Below, piece after piece: positions 32,996 to 46,081 of a stretch of DNA of 64,000 nucleotides. Position numbers and translations under genes: made by a program. Origin of the DNA: Candidatus Obscuribacterales bacterium (lineage in GTDB: Bacteria; Cyanobacteriota; Vampirovibrionia; Obscuribacterales; Obscuribacteraceae); assembly GCA_965228855.1 (NCBI GenBank), contig CBDDIJ010000003.1, forward strand, positions 2,432,001 to 2,496,000, read 5' to 3'. A model generated the notes under the pieces. The model had not been told where the DNA came from, ran no database searches, and worked only from the letters and a program-made list of their open reading frames with translations. Position 1 is the stretch's first letter; each line of letters opens with the position of its first letter.

Positions 32996-35182
32996 TTACC
33001 TGGCTCTGAATCTTTCCCGCTCTTTGTTAACCCTCTCCATATCTATGGGAAGCATGTAACCGGCGGCAACAAGCAATTTGTCAAGCGAGATTCCCTGGCG
33101 GTTTGAGATGGCAACCATGTCACGGAGCTGATCGCCCGTAATCCTGCGCCGTTGCAGCAAATACTGTTCCAGCTCGAGTCGCCCCAGCAACAAATCGACG
33201 GTTAAGCTCATGACAGGGTCGGTATGCTCGATATAACCACGATCCAGACAGTATCTGTAACTTGCCAACACCGCCGATTCCGATCTATTAGAATCAGTCA
33301 ATACGAGTAACAGAGTTTTACCTCGCTCCGCATCGAGGAGAACTTGCTTTAGTAACTCATCGAGCTGAGAGTTCGTCAACGCAATTGAGCCGATGTTTGT
33401 AATTTGGAATGTGCTGACCAACAATCGTTCAATATCGATGCTGACTAGCGGCAGAGGGTCCGTGCGCCTCTCGTCGAATTGTTTCACCGGTATTTCCGGT
33501 GCCACTACATGCAATACCTCTTCGAATTCCGAAATATCAGCCTGAAAGTCAGCCAGAGCCTTCGCAGCAACTTCATCTAAATGATCGGCGAGAGGTTCGT
33601 TCAGAGTATCGTTCGGGTTCGTTTCCACCGCCGGCAAGTCTTGCGTCTGATGCGGTTTCTTGTCGCCGTTCTTGTTTTCCTTCTCAGAAGATCCTGAAGA
33701 GGAAGCCTTCTTTAATTGCTTCTTGAAGTTGTCAGCCACATCAGCGTCTTCGGCCGCTATAGTTTCACTGAGATTTGCTTCCTTTCTGTTCTTCGGTGAC
33801 TCATCATCATTGGGAGCTATCGGATCTCGAAGCAGGTCTATTATTTTTCTCTTCGGAACAGCATTTTGCGCTGCGACACCGGTGTCAGTTTTCAAAACCG
33901 GCTCAGCATCAGCTTTTGCAGCGACACCAACTTTCTGCCGCTCGTCGGCACTTTCCACCGCGATAGCTGGATCAATCGCTTTCAGTGGACCGGTTGTTTT
34001 TAAAGTGTCAAGGGAAACCGCTGGCTCTGCCTCTGTTTTAGCTGCACTTTTCGCCGCCGGTTTCTCAACGTCTTTGTAAGACTTCTCCCCGTCCTTCGGC
34101 GTCGATTTGTCGCCATCACGTCTTGCGACGGAGACGTTGTGCCAACCTGCAGTCTTCTCCGCTTTGGAAGAGATCTTATCATCGCCTTTGGCAGAAGCCT
34201 TTTCGCCGTCTTTGCCGGAACTATTCTTCTCACCTTCTGCGGTCTCGACATCCCTGGAAACAGCCTTATTGTCTTCCTGTCCGCCTTTCGGAGCGGTCTT
34301 CTCACCATCTTTTCCTGAAGGTTTGCCGGAATCCCTGGCGGAATTCTTGTCGCTGTCTTTGACTACTTTCGAAGAATCTTTAGCAACCGGTTTATCAGAA
34401 GCAGGTTCTGCCGATTGAGACGATTTTGTATTATCGCTTGCAGCCGGATTCAAAGCTCGCAATCCGGAAGCCGTGTCATCAGCGCCACGCGGTCTGGCGC
34501 GTGCACCACCGATATCAGTTGCATGAAACTCGACAGTGACGCCTTTGGCTGCGGGTTCGGCATGTTTGGCGAGTTCCTTACTTGCCAGCTTCACGAGATC
34601 GGTATCAACCGGTTCACTGAACGCAGTAGGTCGAACGACTTCGACTGAACGCGTTATCAGAAGCCGGTAAAGAACTCCGATAGTTTTCTTCAGGTCAAAC
34701 TGAAACTCGCGCATCGCTTGACGCATAGTTCGTCCGTCAGTGATCCAGCCCAGAATTGCATAGTCTTCCTTCTCGAGCGGCTGCACGTGCAGAGCCTCTT
34801 GCCACTCGGCAGTTCCAAATGTTCGAGATGGAACCACTTCCGTATTCAGACCGACATTGCTCTCGCGAAGAAATGCGCATTGATCGGAAAAACATCCCGG
34901 TTCGGACAGATTCAGGTTTATATTGCTCCGAATCGTGCTCTTGAAATGCGACGGCAGTTTTTCCACCACAAACTCGCCGTCTGTCCAGTTTAGAAATTCG
35001 CAGAGCGCATCCAGACCTTCAAGCAGTCCAAAAGTAGCGACCAGAAGATGACCCTCACAAACAAAGACATCGCCATGCTGACCGCCTTTGTTAATGCGCA
35101 GTCTGTAATTTTTCGTCGATTCGGCAGCAAGCAATTGCAATAGACCTGGCAGACTTATGTCTTCTAGGTTGCCTTCAATCAT
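32996..35182 (-). CDS. DUF4388 (PATAN-like) protein with charged low-complexity linker and degenerate MshEN-like C-terminus
   Basis: MIEGNLEDISLPGLLQLL...GDVFVCEGHLLVA...GLDALCEFLNWTDGEF; KDGEK repeats; LEQYLLQRRRITGDQL...GISLDKLLVAAGYM. Confidence 0.75.
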   Translation of the reverse strand: MIEGNLEDISLPGLLQLLAAESTKNYRLRINKGGQHGDVFVCEGHLLVATFGLLEGLDALCEFLNWTDGEFVVEKLPSHFKSTIRSNINLNLSEPGCFSDQCAFLRESNVGLNTEVVPSRTFGTAEWQEALHVQPLEKEDYAILGWITDGRTMRQAMREFQFDLKKTIGVLYRLLITRSVEVVRPTAFSEPVDTDLVKLASKELAKHAEPAAKGVTVEFHATDIGGARARPRGADDTASGLRALNPAASDNTKSSQSAEPASDKPVAKDSSKVVKDSDKNSARDSGKPSGKDGEKTAPKGGQEDNKAVSRDVETAEGEKNSSGKDGEKASAKGDDKISSKAEKTAGWHNVSVARRDGDKSTPKDGEKSYKDVEKPAAKSAAKTEAEPAVSLDTLKTTGPLKAIDPAIAVESADERQKVGVAAKADAEPVLKTDTGVAAQNAVPKRKIIDLLRDPIAPNDDESPKNRKEANLSETIAAEDADVADNFKKQLKKASSSGSSEKENKNGDKKPHQTQDLPAVETNPNDTLNEPLADHLDEVAAKALADFQADISEFEEVLHVVAPEIPVKQFDERRTDPLPLVSIDIERLLVSTFQITNIGSIALTNSQLDELLKQVLLDAERGKTLLLVLTDSNRSESAVLASYRYCLDRGYIEHTDPVMSLTVDLLLGRLELEQYLLQRRRITGDQLRDMVAISNRQGISLDKLLVAAGYMLPIDMERVNKERERFRAR

Positions 35183-39712: not shown

Positions 39713-40534
39713 CTATTTCTTAGACAATTCCGGATGCACGAGCGTAACTGGAAAGAGATCCGCTTCCGGATAAATCAGGCGCAAGTTTGTTGAAGCTGAA
39801 TCTTCGCTGTCACCATTGCGTTCCGACAAACTGGAGTTGGAAGCAAGAGGCGCATATTGACCCGATTCTACGCCCACCCCGCCATAATCCATCGCTGCAA
39901 GATTCAGCGATATTCCTGATTGAGGCAAGCGCGAATCGAAGCGATTGACCGGATCGTTAGCTCCGACTTTCTGTTGGATTTTCTGAATTACCGCAGCCGG
40001 AGCCGGACTCGGAACGCAGATTATTGCGCCGGTCAATGTTCCTTTTTTTGTTTGCAGTTTATTGACCTTGGTTATAAACGAACTGAGATATCGCGACGCA
40101 CGCTTGTCGAAATCCTTGCGCTTTTGCGGTTTCACCAGACGCGCAATCACCAGCGGACTGTTTTGACTGTTGTAAAACACGATGTCAAAAACCGGAATTC
40201 TGATTGGTACAAGAAAGCCCTGACGAACAACTTCTACTTTGCAGGACGTCAATCGAGAAATCGATTCCCACAATTCTCTCTGGCGATTGTAAAGACCAGT
40301 TCTGTGAGCCATCTCGAAGTAGCCGGAGAGTACATAATTGACAAGAGAGACGACATCTCGGGCCGGCTTTTTCCCATCAAATTCCAGAACAATATTTTCA
40401 CCGGCACGCTTCACGTCATACGGTGTTACAGAGCGTGGATTGGCGACAACAGAGAAGAGTCCGAAGGCATCGGTCTCCAGACATTTGATTTGAATATGGC
40501 GTGAAGAAAGCCGACTCATTTTATTTCCTGACAC
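39713..40534 (-). CDS. Hypothetical protein
   Basis: 273-aa ORF filling the gap, no recognised motif. Confidence 0.55.
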   Translation of the reverse strand: MSGNKMSRLSSRHIQIKCLETDAFGLFSVVANPRSVTPYDVKRAGENIVLEFDGKKPARDVVSLVNYVLSGYFEMAHRTGLYNRQRELWESISRLTSCKVEVVRQGFLVPIRIPVFDIVFYNSQNSPLVIARLVKPQKRKDFDKRASRYLSSFITKVNKLQTKKGTLTGAIICVPSPAPAAVIQKIQQKVGANDPVNRFDSRLPQSGISLNLAAMDYGGVGVESGQYAPLASNSSLSERNGDSEDSASTNLRLIYPEADLFPVTLVHPELSKK

Positions 40535-40891
40535 AAGTATATTGAAGTGATCAATCGTGGTACATCTATGTTAACGACTTGAAATCGGCACCACATCAAT
40601 GAAAGGAGGACCAATCAAGTTATCCGACACATGCTGACCCACGGTCAGCTGATAATACTGTAAACTGGAAATAGGCGTGTAGGCGGCAGGCTCTTGCTTT
40701 CGATGGGGGAAAGCAATTGCTGGTGAGGGATGATAGCGCGGCTCCTTAAACGTATTAAAATCGATAAGACGCGATACTTCTCAAGCGCGCCCATTCGGGC
40801 CTACTTTTCCACGAGTCTTGAGTTCCAAACAGCCATAGGAAACTAGTAGCACAACGCGATGACACTTATACCTTCTCGAACCAGTTTCAAC

Positions 40892-41431
40892 ATGTCCGCT
40901 GCCTCGGTTCTTACCGAGATAAAGAAGGGAGGCAACGAAAAGCGGAACGAATTCGTTTGGGTAAACCAGGAACGAGTTTACGCGATTGCGCTGATAGCCA
41001 CTGGTAGTCCTCAAGACGCACAAGAGATAACAATCGCGACTTTTAGAAACGCATTCGCCACCTTGAAAACGGCGTTGCCAAAGAAAGAGAGTGACATGAC
41101 CATTTGGGATTGGTTGTCACAGTTTGTCGTTGAAGCTTGCGAAGAATACCATGCGCGTCATTCTGACCCCCCGCAAGAACGCGACATTGATCCGTCCGCC
41201 GATGGGTCGGCGAACATGGATTGGGAAACCACTGTACTTTTAGGTGTCCAGAGAATAAGAAGATGTCTCGGCTCACTGCCTGAAGACCAGCAAAGGGTTT
41301 TCTATTTAAGGCATCACTTAGACCTCAACTACGATCAGATTTCGAGAGTCTTGAATCAGTCCAAGGAAATGACGATGGCTTCGCTTTTCCGGGCTAGAGT
41401 TCAAATCGTAAAGTGCCTGGGTCGAGGATAA
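40892..41431 (+). CDS. ECF-type sigma-70 factor (divergent)
   Basis: Region 2-like VYAIALIATGSPQDAQEI..WL; region 4 LPEDQQRVFYLRHHLDLNYDQISRVLN...LFRAR; start 40859 or 40892. Confidence 0.85.
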   Translation: MSAASVLTEIKKGGNEKRNEFVWVNQERVYAIALIATGSPQDAQEITIATFRNAFATLKTALPKKESDMTIWDWLSQFVVEACEEYHARHSDPPQERDIDPSADGSANMDWETTVLLGVQRIRRCLGSLPEDQQRVFYLRHHLDLNYDQISRVLNQSKEMTMASLFRARVQIVKCLGRG

Positions 41432-41473: not shown

Positions 41474-44400
41474 ATGAGCTGTCACGAGTATAGATATCTA
41501 ATCCAACACAGGTTCGACGAGGACCTTGACGCCGACGAAGTTGAGTCGGTAGATGATCACATCGATCAGTGTGAGTCATGCCAGAAGTTTGAGCATCAAC
41601 TAGATCAGATGATCCAGGGCGCTGAGGAAATGCCCCTACCGGAGGAGCTGACTCCGCCCAATCCGGAAGCTCTTGCCAAAATGGTCCAGGACAAATTGCC
41701 GCAACAGAAGTCTTCGGTGTTCTCGATGTTCACCGAAATGTTCAGCGGCGGAAACAAGCAAGCCTCGCGGGGCAACAAAGCTTCCAAAGACAAAACCGAG
41801 TTTCCGAAACGTGGAAAGTCGGTCGCCAACAAGCGCGAATCTAGATCGGCAGAGGATAACGAAAGCGAAGAAGCAATGTCCGGCAGGCTGAAGTCACTCG
41901 CTCGCGAGCCTGACGAAAGTCGCGATTTGCAGTCCACCACCAGAGGTCTTGGTGAGAAATTCGGATTCGCAAACGCTCCCACAAGCGAGGCGAACGCCGC
42001 ACCGCTGACACTGGCAGAATCTATTCGCAGGAAAATCTCCGAATCGCAGAAATTGTCTGTCGAAGACGAAGGAGACATGACATCGGACGACCGCCTCACG
42101 GCTCCGACTCCGCCCCCAGGAATTGCGCAAACAAACGCGCCTCCGCCTGGTATCGCACAGACCGGAGGTGATCAGTGGAATGCTCCGATGAAGATATCGG
42201 GTCAGGCTCAGCCGGACGCCGGCTGGACTCCCGGTGGAGCACAACCTAATTCATGGACACCGAATCAAAATCAATCGCCGCCTTCAAGTCATCCGGGCAG
42301 CGCTATTGGACTTGCTGCGCCCGGTTCGGAGAGTGGATGGAACGAAGATAAGCGCCCTCCTCGCGGGACCAATGCCGGCGACGAGAACGCAGGCTGGGGA
42401 CCTCCCCCGGCAGGTGGTGCATGGGAAGATCCATCGGGCGGCGGTGGCGCTCAGCCACCAGCCGGACAGGAAGGCTGGGGCGCAGGAGCTTCATCGAGCT
42501 GGGCAACCTCGCCATCGCCAACGCAGCCAGGAGCCGATCAATTTGGAAGCGGCGGCTGGAATGTCCCATCAGCAAAAGAGAATCAAACTAGCGGTGCTGC
42601 TCCGGCCCCCGCGGCACCAGCTCCAGGCTGGGGTGGCGGCGGCGCTGGATCTGCGGACGGATGGGGAGGCGGCGGAAATGCTGCAGCTCCGGCCGGCGCT
42701 GGCGCAGTCAACTCCTGGGGAGCACCTCCATCCGGAGCTGCTCAAGGTCAGCAAGGCGGCTGGTCTGATGGCGGCGGCGGCAGTGCTGGTGGAGCATCGT
42801 GGGATGCAGGCAAATCAGACACGGCATCGGGCTCCTGGGCACCGACTAACACGCCACCTGCTGCAGCCGGCGATTCTTGGTCAGCAGGAGGCGGTAACGA
42901 CAGCTGGGGGGCACCCAACAACCAACAAGGCGGCGGAGCTGCTGACAGTTGGGGAGGAGCTCCCGGCGCCGAGCAACAATCGAATTCATGGGGTAATGGA
43001 GCCGCAGCGCAGGCTCCAGCACCAGCGCCGACTCCGGCGCCAGCACCGGCGCCAGCCAATGACGCAGGCTGGGGACAGCCAGCCGGTGGCGGCGATCAGG
43101 GCGGCTGGGGTTCAGGCAGTGGTCAATCCTGGGGCGGAGCTCCGGCGGCCCAAGCTCCAGCACCTCAAGCACCAGCACAACCAGCGGACCAGGGTGGCTG
43201 GGGAGCACCGGCGGCAGCCACACCAGCATCGAATCCCGGCGGAGGCTGGGGCGGTGCGCAGGGAGGAGGCGGAGAAGGTGGTTGGGGCTCAACCCCGTCT
43301 GCAGCTCCACCAGCGTCTGCAGCTCCGGGCGCGACAGCATCCGGCGATTGGACGGCTACTTCCGGTGGTGAGACTACCGGAGGATGGGGAGGCGCGGCAG
43401 CACCTGCGCCGGCAAAACAACCTGAGGGCGGAGCACCCGGTTGGGGCGCAAGCGCCAGCCAGGGAGGCTGGGACACGCAACCATGGGACGATAAGTCAGA
43501 AGCTAAACAACGTGGCAACTGGTCCATAGAAGCAGAACAGATGGAGACGGGGACCTGGAGCAGCTACAGTGGCGCTCAGGCAGCCACGGGCGGTAACGCA
43601 CTGGGCGCAAAGCCGCCCGCGCAGGCCGGACAAATGTCCAGCGAAATGTCTCAAGATCGCTGGGACACTCCGATTCAAGAACGCGGAGCACCAGCTGCTC
43701 CAGCGGCAGCCCAAGCAGCCGGCGAAAGTCATTGGGATGTGCCGATTCAAGAAAAGTTGAAAGGAAAGACGGATCCAGGCGCGGCACCACCGGCGGCACC
43801 AGCTGCACCGGGATGGGGAGCTCCCGCAGCAGCACCGGCAGCACCGGCAGCAGCTCAAGGAGCGGGCGAAAGCCATTGGGACCTTCCAATCCAGGAGAAG
43901 TTGAAACAACAGCAAGCCGGCGGAGCGGCACCATACGAAAACACGCCGCCCCAACCGTTCGGACAACCACCTGCCCCAGCGGATTCGTTCGGCGGTTCGA
44001 CAGGAGCACCGCCATCATTTGGAGCGCCTCCCGGTGCACCGGCCGCGCCACCAGCATTTGGTGCTGCGCCAGGGGCACCGTCAGCAACTCCGGCATTCGG
44101 AGCGGCCCCCGGCGCACCAGCTGCGCCACCAGCATTCGGTGGAGCACCTTCGGATAACGCCTTTGGCGCGCCGCCGGCATTCGGCGCTGCACCCGGCGCT
44201 CCAGCATCACCACCGGCATTCGGTCAGCCGCCAGCAGACACGACACCTCCGGCGTTCGGTGCACCACCGGCGCCATCTTTCGGTGGAGCACCAGCGCCTG
44301 CAGCACCGGCTCCAGCCGCTCCAGCTCCAGCAGCCGCATCCGGCGGCGCAGGATTGTTCTCGAAACCTCTAGACGACAGTGCCATGGATCAAATTTTCGA

Positions 44401-46081
44401 TGGTCTCGGCATTAAGGAAAGCGGCGTCCAACCAGTTCAATCTGCGCCCGCAGCGGCTCCACAACAAGCGACCCTGCAACAGGCGCCTAATGTGCCACCA
44501 CCGGCACAGGCTCCGGCACCAGGTGGATGGGGAACACCTCCAGCACCGGCAGCTCCAGCTGCAGGAGGATGGGGAGCGCCTCCGGCACCAGCAGGAGTTC
44601 CGGACACAATGTCGTTTGCACCGGAAGTTCAGGCTCAAGCTGAAGCCCCCAGACTCACAGCTATTCCTCCGAAGGCTCCAACAACCGAAACGCAAGCACC
44701 ACTTCCAGCTCCGGCACCACCGGCGATGCCAGGAATGCCGGCACCTTCGGCCGCACCACAGGTCGCCCCCGTCCAATCTAAGAAAGCGGGCGGCGGAATG
44801 TTCTCGCTGGACGACGATGCAGTCGATCAAATCTTCGCGAAAATCGGTGTCGAAGAATCTTCGATTCCGGTCAACCAGGGCGCAGCAGCTCCGGCAATGC
44901 CAGCCGCAGCAGCGCAAATGCCGGCAGCAGCGGCCGCAACGCCGGCGCCACCGGCGATGCAATCAATGCCTGCCCCTCCAGCCATGACACCGCCGGCACT
45001 GGGTCAGCCTCCGGCTCCGAGCGGCATGGCGCCACCACCAGCGATGCCGAATTCAGGTGCGCCACCAGCTTTTGGCATGGCACCACCGGCAGGCATGACA
45101 CCGCCCGGCGGAATGGCTCCTCCAGCAGGTTTTGGAGCTCCTCCAGGAGGTATGCCGGCGGCACCGATGCCACCACAAATGCCAGCAGCACCAGCGGCGG
45201 CACCACAGCAAAACAAATCCGGACTGTTCCAGGTCGATGATAAAGACATGGACAGCTTATTCGACAAAGTTCTTCTCAATCCTGGCTCCGAAGGCGCTAC
45301 AGCCGCTGTCAGCGCCCCTGCGCCGCAAGCCCCTGTGGGCGCCGCTCCGCCTCCTGGATTTGGCGCACCGCCGGCTCCGCAAGCAGGCAACGGTCAGTAC
45401 CCTCAGCAAGGAGCGATGCCGGCAATGCCTCCAGCGATGCCGGGGATGCCACCCGCCATGCCCGGCATGGGAATGCCCGGAATGGCCCCTGCCCCAGCTC
45501 CTGCTCCGGCGCCGGAACCGCCGGCAGCAGCAGTGGCTCACGTGCCACAATCAAATTTGCCACCACCAAAAATTGAAGGTATCGGTAAACTTGACGCAAG
45601 CGCTGATGTTGCGGAGACAGGCTCCGGAAGAATTGCGGCAATCGGCAAATTCTTGCTGGACCAGAAAGATCTGGAGAAGCTCAGCAAGATCACTGCCGCC
45701 GATCAGCAAGATATAAAAATGCGCATCCTCACGCTCGAAGCATCTGAGGATCTGCAAACTCTCTTGAGCGAAATCGGCGGACAAGAGAAGGTCATTGGTT
45801 CAGTTATCGTCGGACACGACGGTCTCTTGATTGCCAACACGATGCCGGAAGAAGTGGATGCTGAGTCAATCGGCGTATGGGCTCTGGGTGTCTATATGAA
45901 CACTGAGCACGTGACAAAGAAAATGGGTCACGAGCGCGTGCACCAGGTCGTCTCACGAACACCTCGGGGTTACGTGGTTATCGCGGACTTCGGTGGCGGC
46001 TTGCTCGTCACGATTACCGAAGGAACCGACACTGACACCTTGATTCCACTGATGCGCAAGATCACCGATCTGGTTTCCTAG
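41474..46081 (+). CDS. 1535-aa zinc anti-sigma (zf-HC2) / giant low-complexity region / Roadblock-LC7 (MglB-like) fusion protein
   Basis: N-terminal C...HIDQCESC (HxxxCxxC); long G/P/A-rich region with WG and FG motifs; C-terminal VIGSVIVGHDGLLIANT...TPRGYVVI Roadblock pattern; no TM segment. Confidence 0.85.
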   Translation: MSCHEYRYLIQHRFDEDLDADEVESVDDHIDQCESCQKFEHQLDQMIQGAEEMPLPEELTPPNPEALAKMVQDKLPQQKSSVFSMFTEMFSGGNKQASRGNKASKDKTEFPKRGKSVANKRESRSAEDNESEEAMSGRLKSLAREPDESRDLQSTTRGLGEKFGFANAPTSEANAAPLTLAESIRRKISESQKLSVEDEGDMTSDDRLTAPTPPPGIAQTNAPPPGIAQTGGDQWNAPMKISGQAQPDAGWTPGGAQPNSWTPNQNQSPPSSHPGSAIGLAAPGSESGWNEDKRPPRGTNAGDENAGWGPPPAGGAWEDPSGGGGAQPPAGQEGWGAGASSSWATSPSPTQPGADQFGSGGWNVPSAKENQTSGAAPAPAAPAPGWGGGGAGSADGWGGGGNAAAPAGAGAVNSWGAPPSGAAQGQQGGWSDGGGGSAGGASWDAGKSDTASGSWAPTNTPPAAAGDSWSAGGGNDSWGAPNNQQGGGAADSWGGAPGAEQQSNSWGNGAAAQAPAPAPTPAPAPAPANDAGWGQPAGGGDQGGWGSGSGQSWGGAPAAQAPAPQAPAQPADQGGWGAPAAATPASNPGGGWGGAQGGGGEGGWGSTPSAAPPASAAPGATASGDWTATSGGETTGGWGGAAAPAPAKQPEGGAPGWGASASQGGWDTQPWDDKSEAKQRGNWSIEAEQMETGTWSSYSGAQAATGGNALGAKPPAQAGQMSSEMSQDRWDTPIQERGAPAAPAAAQAAGESHWDVPIQEKLKGKTDPGAAPPAAPAAPGWGAPAAAPAAPAAAQGAGESHWDLPIQEKLKQQQAGGAAPYENTPPQPFGQPPAPADSFGGSTGAPPSFGAPPGAPAAPPAFGAAPGAPSATPAFGAAPGAPAAPPAFGGAPSDNAFGAPPAFGAAPGAPASPPAFGQPPADTTPPAFGAPPAPSFGGAPAPAAPAPAAPAPAAASGGAGLFSKPLDDSAMDQIFDGLGIKESGVQPVQSAPAAAPQQATLQQAPNVPPPAQAPAPGGWGTPPAPAAPAAGGWGAPPAPAGVPDTMSFAPEVQAQAEAPRLTAIPPKAPTTETQAPLPAPAPPAMPGMPAPSAAPQVAPVQSKKAGGGMFSLDDDAVDQIFAKIGVEESSIPVNQGAAAPAMPAAAAQMPAAAAATPAPPAMQSMPAPPAMTPPALGQPPAPSGMAPPPAMPNSGAPPAFGMAPPAGMTPPGGMAPPAGFGAPPGGMPAAPMPPQMPAAPAAAPQQNKSGLFQVDDKDMDSLFDKVLLNPGSEGATAAVSAPAPQAPVGAAPPPGFGAPPAPQAGNGQYPQQGAMPAMPPAMPGMPPAMPGMGMPGMAPAPAPAPAPEPPAAAVAHVPQSNLPPPKIEGIGKLDASADVAETGSGRIAAIGKFLLDQKDLEKLSKITAADQQDIKMRILTLEASEDLQTLLSEIGGQEKVIGSVIVGHDGLLIANTMPEEVDAESIGVWALGVYMNTEHVTKKMGHERVHQVVSRTPRGYVVIADFGGGLLVTITEGTDTDTLIPLMRKITDLVS

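Follow-up and report, generated by a model that had tools for sequence, protein, structure and literature searches.

A Trp-patterned low-complexity protein with an anti-sigma-like head, MglB helix-like motifs and a Roadblock tail in Obscuribacterales

Organization of the locus

We examined a 64,000-nucleotide stretch of contig CBDDIJ010000003.1 (positions 2,432,001 to 2,496,000, forward strand; assembly GCA_965228855.1) from a Candidatus Obscuribacterales bacterium; this whole stretch is referred to as the window, and positions are counted from its first letter. The subject of this study is one large open reading frame (ORF), here called the scaffold, together with the gene for a sigma-like protein located directly upstream (Table 1). 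The scaffold consists of a zf-HC2 head, a low-complexity linker of ~1,170 amino acids (aa) and a Roadblock tail. Among the 6,528 ORFs called in the genome it had the highest count of WG dipeptides (19, the runner-up having 10). The whole stretch was found intact and unchanged in two short-read assemblies, which may be its source; no RNA data set was listed as containing it, and one run labelled as RNA is probably DNA.

A first-pass annotation, made by a model from the sequence, had described a region whose chemistry changes in three blocks, and all three were recovered where it had placed them, inside a single ORF. Positions 42170 to 43890, for which ~35 Trp had been estimated, contained 36 Trp and 1 Phe, with 17 WG and 17 GW dipeptides and a mean Trp spacing of 16 aa. 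This array was real, but the Trp residues at aa 683, 695, 730, 754 and 802 sit in conserved linear motifs. For positions 43950 to 44290, ~11 PAFG/PSFG motifs had been reported; 11 Phe were present, each followed by Gly, with eight strict P[AS]FG motifs and no Trp. The Met/Pro-rich segment at 44700 to 45500 contained 25 Met, 15 MP and 11 GM; the block was present, yet it is broken by two conserved acidic helices. A further acidic helix sits between the FG and Met blocks, and two extra GGWG units lie past the FG block, at aa 1019 and 1033. The segregation of W, F and M was marked, with 27 label runs compared to 60.9 ± 4.4 in 10,000 shuffles (shuffle minimum, 43), and the coefficient of variation of Trp spacing was 0.42 versus 0.93 ± 0.14 in shuffles (p = 1e-4).

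The Trp zone is composed of G/A/P/S spacers with 7% aromatic residues, 2 Arg and a net negative charge. Because 68% of this zone is G, A, P or S and 1% is I, L or V, the linker is likely to be disordered; a search of the ESM Atlas with aa 230 to 830 gave no usable match. At the DNA level, the repeats had been described as degenerate, and analysis with Tandem Repeats Finder (TRF) agreed: they were short and mostly degenerate, in arrays with 68 to 100% matches. The sole 100%-matched array was a 24-bp 9-mer array, the array in the FG block had a period of 39 and 68% matches, and the repeated motif units differed in synonymous codons.

Table 1. Positions in the window of the scaffold, its parts and the adjacent genes
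Feature	Position	Strand	Basis or remark
Whole scaffold ORF P0001, 1,535 aa	41474..46081	+	ORF call, orthologues
Anti-sigma-like head, aa 1-92, zf-HC2/ZAS type (C3, H30-x3-C34-x2-C37)	41474..41749	+	Pfam, NCBIfam
SxGEKF and TLAESIRRKISE motifs, aa 155-192, front anchor of Trp zone	41936..42049	+	Conservation
Trp sticker zone, aa 235-672	42176..43489	+	[G/D/S]-[G/S/A]-W-G units every ~13-14 aa
Single-copy WSxEAEQMETGTW, aa 683-698, rear anchor of Trp zone	43520..43567	+	Conservation
Three WDxPIQE[RK] motifs, aa 729-737, 753-761, 801-809	43658..43900	+	Conservation
FG block, aa 827-939, 11 FG	43952..44290	+	Lineage-specific, often WG units instead
MglB Ct-helix-like motif 1, aa 960-980	44351..44413	+	Alignment, register with MglB helix
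Met/Pro-rich spacers flanking motifs 2 and 3, aa 1085-1337	44726..45484	+	Met content varies among orthologues
MglB Ct-helix-like motif 2, aa 1107-1126	44792..44851	+	Alignment, register with MglB helix
MglB Ct-helix-like motif 3, aa 1250-1269	45221..45280	+	Predicted on MglA alpha5 and beta2-beta3 loop
Pre-Roadblock element, 56 aa, aa 1365-1420	45566..45733	+	High conservation, low-confidence monomer model
Roadblock/LC7 (MglB-fold) domain	45734..46081	+	Pfam Robl_LC7 (PF03259), 33.8 bits, over cut-off
Divergent ECF-fold sigma-like protein, 190 aa, directly upstream	40859..41431	+	Pfam Sigma70_r4_2 only; AF2 fold
Divergently transcribed 273-aa gene, syntenic with pair	39713..40534	-	In 39/41 loci

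Orthologues and selection in the linker

Scaffold orthologues, defined by a tail match at ≥49% identity, were detected in 33 of 36 genomes of the family (one as a fragment), in 2 of 3 other genomes of the order and in 0 of 21 genomes from other families of the class. The sigma-like gene had a similar distribution (34 of 36, 3 of 3 and 0 of 21, respectively), and genomes G015 (77% complete) and G023 (98% complete) were without both the sigma-like gene and an orthologue-level scaffold match. Named relatives among the matches listed came mostly from Obscuribacterales or Melainabacteria assemblies. The orthologue set comprised 76 full-length ORFs from fetched loci, of which 62 were distinct and 41 shared <80% mutual identity. 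Their lengths ranged from 744 to 1,773 aa, and the sigma-like gene lay directly upstream of the scaffold in all 41; the two genes are coupled. In two genomes, G016 (L065:4476-8633) and G008 (L070:5216-8283), the scaffold gene was broken into separate frames, through either an error of assembly or a true frameshift.

The blocks could be zoned by anchors in 35 of the 41 orthologues; six were left out, including L031 and L034. Trp outnumbered Phe in the first zone of all 35, with a Trp density of 3.6 to 7.7%, and the number of Trp residues tracked the length of this zone (r = 0.81). Gly followed 62% of the first-zone Trp residues, which were preceded by G, D or S. The second zone was variable, with at least seven FG in 9 orthologues, at least seven WG in 13 and neither in the other 13, and the FG-rich forms fell in two separate clades. 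Met content was also uneven, 12 orthologues having at least 20 Met and 12 having 8 or fewer.

Selection was examined in close pairs of orthologues. The ratio of nonsynonymous to synonymous differences (pN/pS) was 0.24 in the Trp zone, 0.19 in the second zone and 0.01 in the tail (17 of 19 chosen pairs). Substitutions were counted in an identity-only alignment of 14 pairs. In the Trp zone, 1 of 667 Trp residues had changed compared to 1,499 of 12,499 other residues (12%), and 98 indels were present. In the second zone, changes were seen in 9 of 579 Phe and 3 of 339 Trp residues, while Met changed at the background rate of 9.6% (49 of 501). As Trp and Phe were nearly fixed and Met was at background in these counts, selection acts on the aromatic stickers, either W or F can serve in the second zone and the Met block amounts to spacer chemistry. 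The family has the regularly placed, selected aromatics in low-complexity spacers that are expected of a sticker-and-spacer protein, the Trp spacing being more regular than in shuffles in 23 of the 35 zoned orthologues.

These results upheld the proposal in the first-pass annotation of protein-level selection on the Trp patterning, since Trp is almost fixed at a pN/pS of 0.24 despite common indels. The three-chemistry design did not survive as a family trait, given the minority of orthologues with FG-rich or Met-rich blocks. Conservation of aromatic patterning across orthologues was the test on which that annotation had staked its proposal; the Trp array was conserved, but the three-block design was not. 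Between the conserved motifs, the FG and Met blocks supply spacer chemistry that is specific to certain lineages.

The conserved motifs stand between the blocks in a fixed order in the orthologue alignment. The front anchor TLAESIRRKISE was present in 41 of 41 orthologues (TLAESI in 41 of 41) and SxGEKF in 37. The rear anchor WSxEAEQMETGTW, with a pN/pS of 0.04, was matched by pattern in 35 of 41, and WDxPIQE[RK] was present in 37 of 41, in one to seven copies each. WDTPIQER was also matched once in an unrelated protein of the genome (1,337 aa), which was taken as chance. PopZ was considered as a possible likeness for the TLAESI helix and rejected: a PDB search returned just a designed repeat protein (E, 4.2), and a literature search was empty. 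Other Trp-patterned low-complexity proteins were noted in this genome (G000) at C3:1360069-1362297 and at two more loci (C3:2034469-2035707 and C5:163268-164611); the types seen were a P/Q-rich protein of 742 aa in which many Trp are spaced out, a 412-aa protein that combines GQSGW repeats with a tail of Met and Gly, and a protein rich in Q, R and W.

MglB-like helices, the Roadblock tail and the anti-sigma-like head

The acidic helices carry the pattern [VIL]-D-D-x-x-[MIV]-D-x-[IL]-F, which was present in 41 of 41 orthologues; by this strict pattern, 26 had three copies, 8 had two and 7 had one. Among the 150 homologues listed, the 80 proteins of at least 400 aa contained 105 sites versus 0.38 expected. 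The pattern resembles the C-terminal (Ct) helix of Myxococcus xanthus MglB. According to the available text of PMC6785124, MglB residues 147 to 157 bind an MglA pocket formed by alpha5 and the beta2-beta3 loop, and the residues named in this helix are I148, D150 to D152, D154, L156 and F157. All 86 distinct motif copies were similar to MglB at five or more of these seven residues. The helix is described, in the accessible parts of PMC13408092 and bioRxiv 10.1101/2023.03.05.531159, as holding MglB on MglA-GDP and favoring exchange. In the scaffold no D/E-rich helix is C-terminal to the Roadblock domain: the protein ends with this domain, and three such helices are N-terminal to it.

Two MglA genes were found in the genome. 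The main one (C2:1561963-1562541; L137) encodes a protein of 192 aa that matched M. xanthus MglA at an E value of 2e-79. In M. xanthus, MglA K181 contacts MglB F157 and K185 contacts D154, with L64 and I67 close by (PMC6785124, in the text available). This pocket is intact in the main MglA, which retains R53, Q82, L64, K181 and K185 and has V in place of I67; K181 and K185 were invariant in 21 of 21 aligned MglA proteins. The main MglA was present in 36 of 36 family genomes, 3 of 3 others of the order and 2 of 21 others of the class. No Roadblock gene lies within 6 kb of this gene, and the scaffold and main mglA genes are not neighbors; both are orphans and hence not of the coupled type. Orphan MglBs are a described class (PMC6785124, available text). 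By best full-length matches, the orphan MglA was 93 to 100% identical across the family, and the gene usually found upstream of it is one that we take to be Hsp33-like. Up to six MglA-like matches were seen in some genomes.

A complex prediction for MglA and motif 3 scored 0.70, compared to 0.01 for the best of three controls. The contacts agreed at ≥82%, the partner had a predicted local distance difference test value (pLDDT) of ≥62, and the predicted interface comprised MglA residues 62 to 70 and 177 to 192, with K181 touching the Phe equivalent to F157, as in the crystal. Because a like complex has been solved (6IZW), this prediction indicates likeness and not binding. We consider it likely that the three acidic helices bind MglA.

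In the Roadblock tail, the Robl_LC7 match spans aa 1428 to 1513. A fold search with model residues 52 to 171, which barely included the pre-Roadblock element, aligned the tail model to an Asgard roadblock (9jue; Z, 16.4; root mean square deviation [RMSD], 1.3; 110 residues aligned) and to M. xanthus MglB (6hjm; Z, 14.5; RMSD, 1.8; 116 aligned). The pre-Roadblock element likely takes up its fold upon dimerization or when bound to a partner. The N-terminal strand of MglB pairs with MglA, as described in the available part of bioRxiv 10.1101/2023.03.05.531159, and by analogy the element might possibly do likewise. A homologous stretch is present in a membrane-anchored paralogue of the same genome (C5:463825-466794; L139; relatives L044 to L050). 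This paralogue lies downstream of pheT and has hydrophobic N-terminal helices, an acidic low-complexity linker, three MglB-helix-like motifs, the pre-Roadblock element and a Roadblock domain; paralogues of this type have two Roadblocks in some genomes, and two other families of the class have related forms. Reduced head-linker-Roadblock paralogues with few Trp and without the acidic helices were also observed (C3:560300-561178 [L140]; further members P0178, P0182, P0184, P0206, P0219, P0232, P0233 and P0246). In three genomes, one or two additional Roadblock genes lie directly 3' of the scaffold (L058:3213-4010, L059:2993-3400 and L066:2663-3538); their products are possible candidates for heterodimer partners.

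In the head, Pfam zf-HC2 matched aa 3 to 37 at 24.7 bits, versus a cut-off of 22.2, when the N-terminal piece was scanned, and NCBIfam antisigmaE matched at an E value of 4.7e-6, a match that falls short of its own cut-off. HxxxCxxC was intact in 30 of 41 orthologues. In the other 11, which fall in two separate clades, zinc ligands were lost and the helices kept, as expected for a binding fold with optional zinc. The AlphaFold2 (AF2) model of the sigma-like protein (pLDDT, 84.5) had AlgU (Z, 11.3; RMSD, 2.4; 87 aligned) and SigW (Z, 11.2; RMSD, 6.2; 151 aligned) as best folds. Sigma regions 2.3-2.4 and 4.2 serve promoter reading. No Pfam sigma region 2 match was obtained for the sigma-like protein or for the 120 homologues listed. 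Its region 2.3-2.4 was acidic in 41 of 41 cases (net charge, -1 to -5), whereas the four other extracytoplasmic function (ECF) sigma factors retrieved from the genome had values of 0 to +1. The region 4.2 helix of the sigma-like protein read E-x-x-M-A-x-L-x-R, in contrast to T/S-V-[KMR]-S in the same four. The protein could recognize an unusual promoter, or it could be a pseudo-sigma. A promoter scan upstream of the sigma gene gave chance-level results. The head probably binds the sigma-like protein.

The divergently transcribed gene on the far side of the pair had no Pfam match; a weak Atlas lead to a PD-(D/E)XK cluster scored 0.87, below the reliable range, and all of its matches were below 0.9. 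About 5.7 kb upstream of the sigma gene (window positions 32996 to 35182, minus strand) lies the gene for a DUF4388 protein whose middle is long, charged and of low complexity. The genome has 21 DUF4388 matches, one of them adjoining the second mglA gene.

A candidate MglA scaffold and its alternatives

Taken together, we read the protein as a multivalent MglB-type scaffold for MglA, clustered by its Trp stickers and with the sigma-like protein tethered to it, and we give this reading as a whole slightly better than even chances; a multivalent scaffold is also what the first-pass annotation had proposed. The tail would dimerize and stimulate GTP hydrolysis like MglB. The three helices moved ahead of the Roadblock domain, six per dimer, would retain several MglA molecules, reload them or favor nucleotide exchange, with motif 3 predicted to dock on alpha5 and the beta2-beta3 loop. 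The W-G stickers, interchangeably with F-G, would self-associate to give a dense and probably polar focus, at which the head would hold the sigma-like protein. The likely role of the scaffold is thus to connect a polarity hub with a sigma-like protein and not with an Argonaute. The output is probably motility or polarity. Of 61 genomes, 35 had PilM over the cut-off, this one among them; it was not found over the cut-off in the scaffold-bearing genomes G011, G017 and G038, and the output is for this reason not surely type IV pili. That all of these steps act in one chain, in which a polar Trp condensate is loaded with several MglA by the triplicate exchange helices, the GTP cycle is run by the Roadblock domain and the sigma-like protein is held or released accordingly, is a conjecture that we consider unlikely to hold in full.

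In addition to the pattern of PilM, several results weighed against this reading. The Roadblock domain had no sequence match to MglB, and its nearest sequences and folds were Asgard roadblocks. A profile of the acidic motif searched against the PDB (E ≤ 10) retrieved no MglB and gave two chance-level matches, and the two middle acidic positions, equivalent to D151 and D152, were weakly kept. Short acidic amphipathic helices are common, and the pattern was found once each in 11 other proteins of the genome, versus 0 to 4 sites in shuffles. The complex-score mark was reached by 116 of 157 solved pairs and 2 of 215 mismatched pairs, and the MglA prediction, made with custom alignments and a ligand, lies outside this calibration; its score may also be a memory of the solved complex. 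The Ct-helix of M. xanthus MglB additionally binds the zinc ribbon of GltJ (PMC11135422, available text). With regard to the Trp zone, spacing was no more regular than in shuffles in 12 of the 35 zoned orthologues, and the short orthologues L031 and L034, both outside the zoning, had four and six Trp, respectively. Self-condensation of the Trp zone is not assured because it is 7% aromatic and net negative with 2 Arg, and we place this step a little short of an even chance.

One alternative is the same MglA binder with Trp units that act as repeated ligands for a folded, Trp-pocket partner, without self-condensation, in the manner of the eukaryotic DPW-type adaptor motifs, which are repeated ligands for folded partners. 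The strong local context, with Gly after 62% of the Trp residues and G, D or S before them, and a near-invariant single Trp per unit suit pocket binding, and low aromatic density and negative charge are also in favor of it; Trp copies vary from 4 to 46, scaling with length, and Phe substitutes for Trp in the second zone of some clades. Furthermore, no partner domain was identified: GYF_2 and Zn_ribbon_4, candidates for a proline- or helix-binding partner, were not found in the genome, the GYF_2 search being weak because its control also matched nowhere. We regard repeated ligands as unlikely, although they are the alternative to be taken most seriously. An improbable alternative for the acidic helices is that they bind their own Roadblock dimer, the head or a zinc-binding partner, resulting in an autoinhibited or wrapped scaffold. 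Such contacts are suggested by the GltJ interaction, by the occurrence of a Roadblock domain in both motif-bearing paralogues and by the possible memory in the complex prediction; the register match with the MglA-binding helix, the invariance of K181 and K185 and the placing of the predicted interface at the pocket argue for MglA instead. It is less probable still that the linker is mainly a long tether, with Trp residues resting on the membrane surface and blocks that tune length or solubility. Trp prefers membrane interfaces, the length is variable with many indels and one paralogue is anchored in the membrane by N-terminal hydrophobic helices; the scaffold itself has none, its net negative zone with few basic residues disfavors anionic membranes, and the second zone strongly retains both F and W.

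A GW182-like Argonaute hook or RNA-granule scaffold, the link that the first-pass annotation had raised as speculation, was considered very improbable. The 17 WG and 17 GW, at least 10 residues apart, resemble the AGO-binding sites of TNRC6, in which pairs of Trp enter PIWI-domain pockets (PMC9262622, in the available text). Piwi was detected in 2 of 61 genomes (one over the cut-off) and not in this one, whereas the scaffold is present in nearly all genomes of the family. The Ago-hook and FG-nucleoporin Pfam families gave no match in the scaffold at E ≤ 0.1, and the zone has 2 Arg and is acidic. Neutral growth of low-complexity sequence through slippage is similarly far-fetched as a general account. 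Indels are frequent, the FG and Met blocks are lineage-specific and part of the FG block rests on a weak 39-bp array, but pN/pS was 0.19 to 0.24 in both zones, Trp and Phe were nearly fixed and the order of the motifs was fixed. Slippage was refuted for Trp and Phe; the Met block may have originated in this way.

The preferred reading, that of an MglB-type MglA scaffold, can be placed among known systems. With M. xanthus MglB, a GTPase-activating protein and exchange factor of MglA (6IZW and 6HJM), the scaffold shares the Roadblock fold, the acidic-helix register and the predicted MglA pocket, and a close MglA is present. MglB is small with one helix after the Roadblock domain, and the extensions surveyed are C-terminal (PMC6785124, in the text available). 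In contrast, the scaffold, with 14% identity to MglB and a gene that is not beside mglA, has three helices 150 to 460 aa before the Roadblock domain in a protein of 1,535 aa, and adds the conserved pre-Roadblock element, the Trp zone and the anti-sigma-like head. With ZAS/zf-HC2 anti-sigmas of the RsrA-SigR and RsiW-SigW type, it shares the C and HxxxCxxC head and a position directly behind the gene for an ECF-fold sigma. It differs in having no transmembrane or periplasmic sensor and a GTPase-regulator fold at the far end, and the pair departs from typical ZAS/ECF pairs through the loss of zinc ligands in 11 of 41 orthologues and a sigma with an acidic region 2.3-2.4 and an altered 4.2 helix. 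PopZ, PodJ, PomY and RomR are bacterial disordered polar hubs. The scaffold is like them in its long low-complexity region, short helical client motifs and likely clustering; it has its own aromatic W-G array and Roadblock domain, and a sequence relationship was not shown. With GW182/TNRC6 and the FG-nucleoporins it shares W-G and F-G units spaced through low-complexity sequence rich in G, S and P, but the genome has no Argonaute, there was no Pfam match and the FG block is not conserved; this likeness is compositional and convergent.

No description of the scaffold was found in the literature covered, subscription papers being outside this coverage. The parts are known; what that literature did not yield is their arrangement, in which a triplicated MglB helix precedes the Roadblock domain in a linker of Trp stickers joined to an anti-sigma-like head. 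Among bacterial small-GTPase polarity switches, MglA/MglB is the best studied, and most knowledge of its regulators comes from Myxococcus and Thermus. The scaffold suggests another design in the Obscuribacterales, in which the allosteric helix of MglB has become a portable, repeated docking motif in a giant scaffold. Peptides of 20 residues spanning the motifs, together with the 192-aa GTPase, would provide a cheap system for examining the action of this helix apart from the Roadblock domain, and the 41 orthologues, with their varied numbers of W and F stickers, are a natural series for the sticker-spacer rules of bacteria. If the whole chain of steps conjectured above were to hold, a Ras-like polarity switch would be linked directly with a sigma factor, or else with a sigma fold repurposed as an adaptor that does not bind DNA, in non-photosynthetic relatives of the cyanobacteria.

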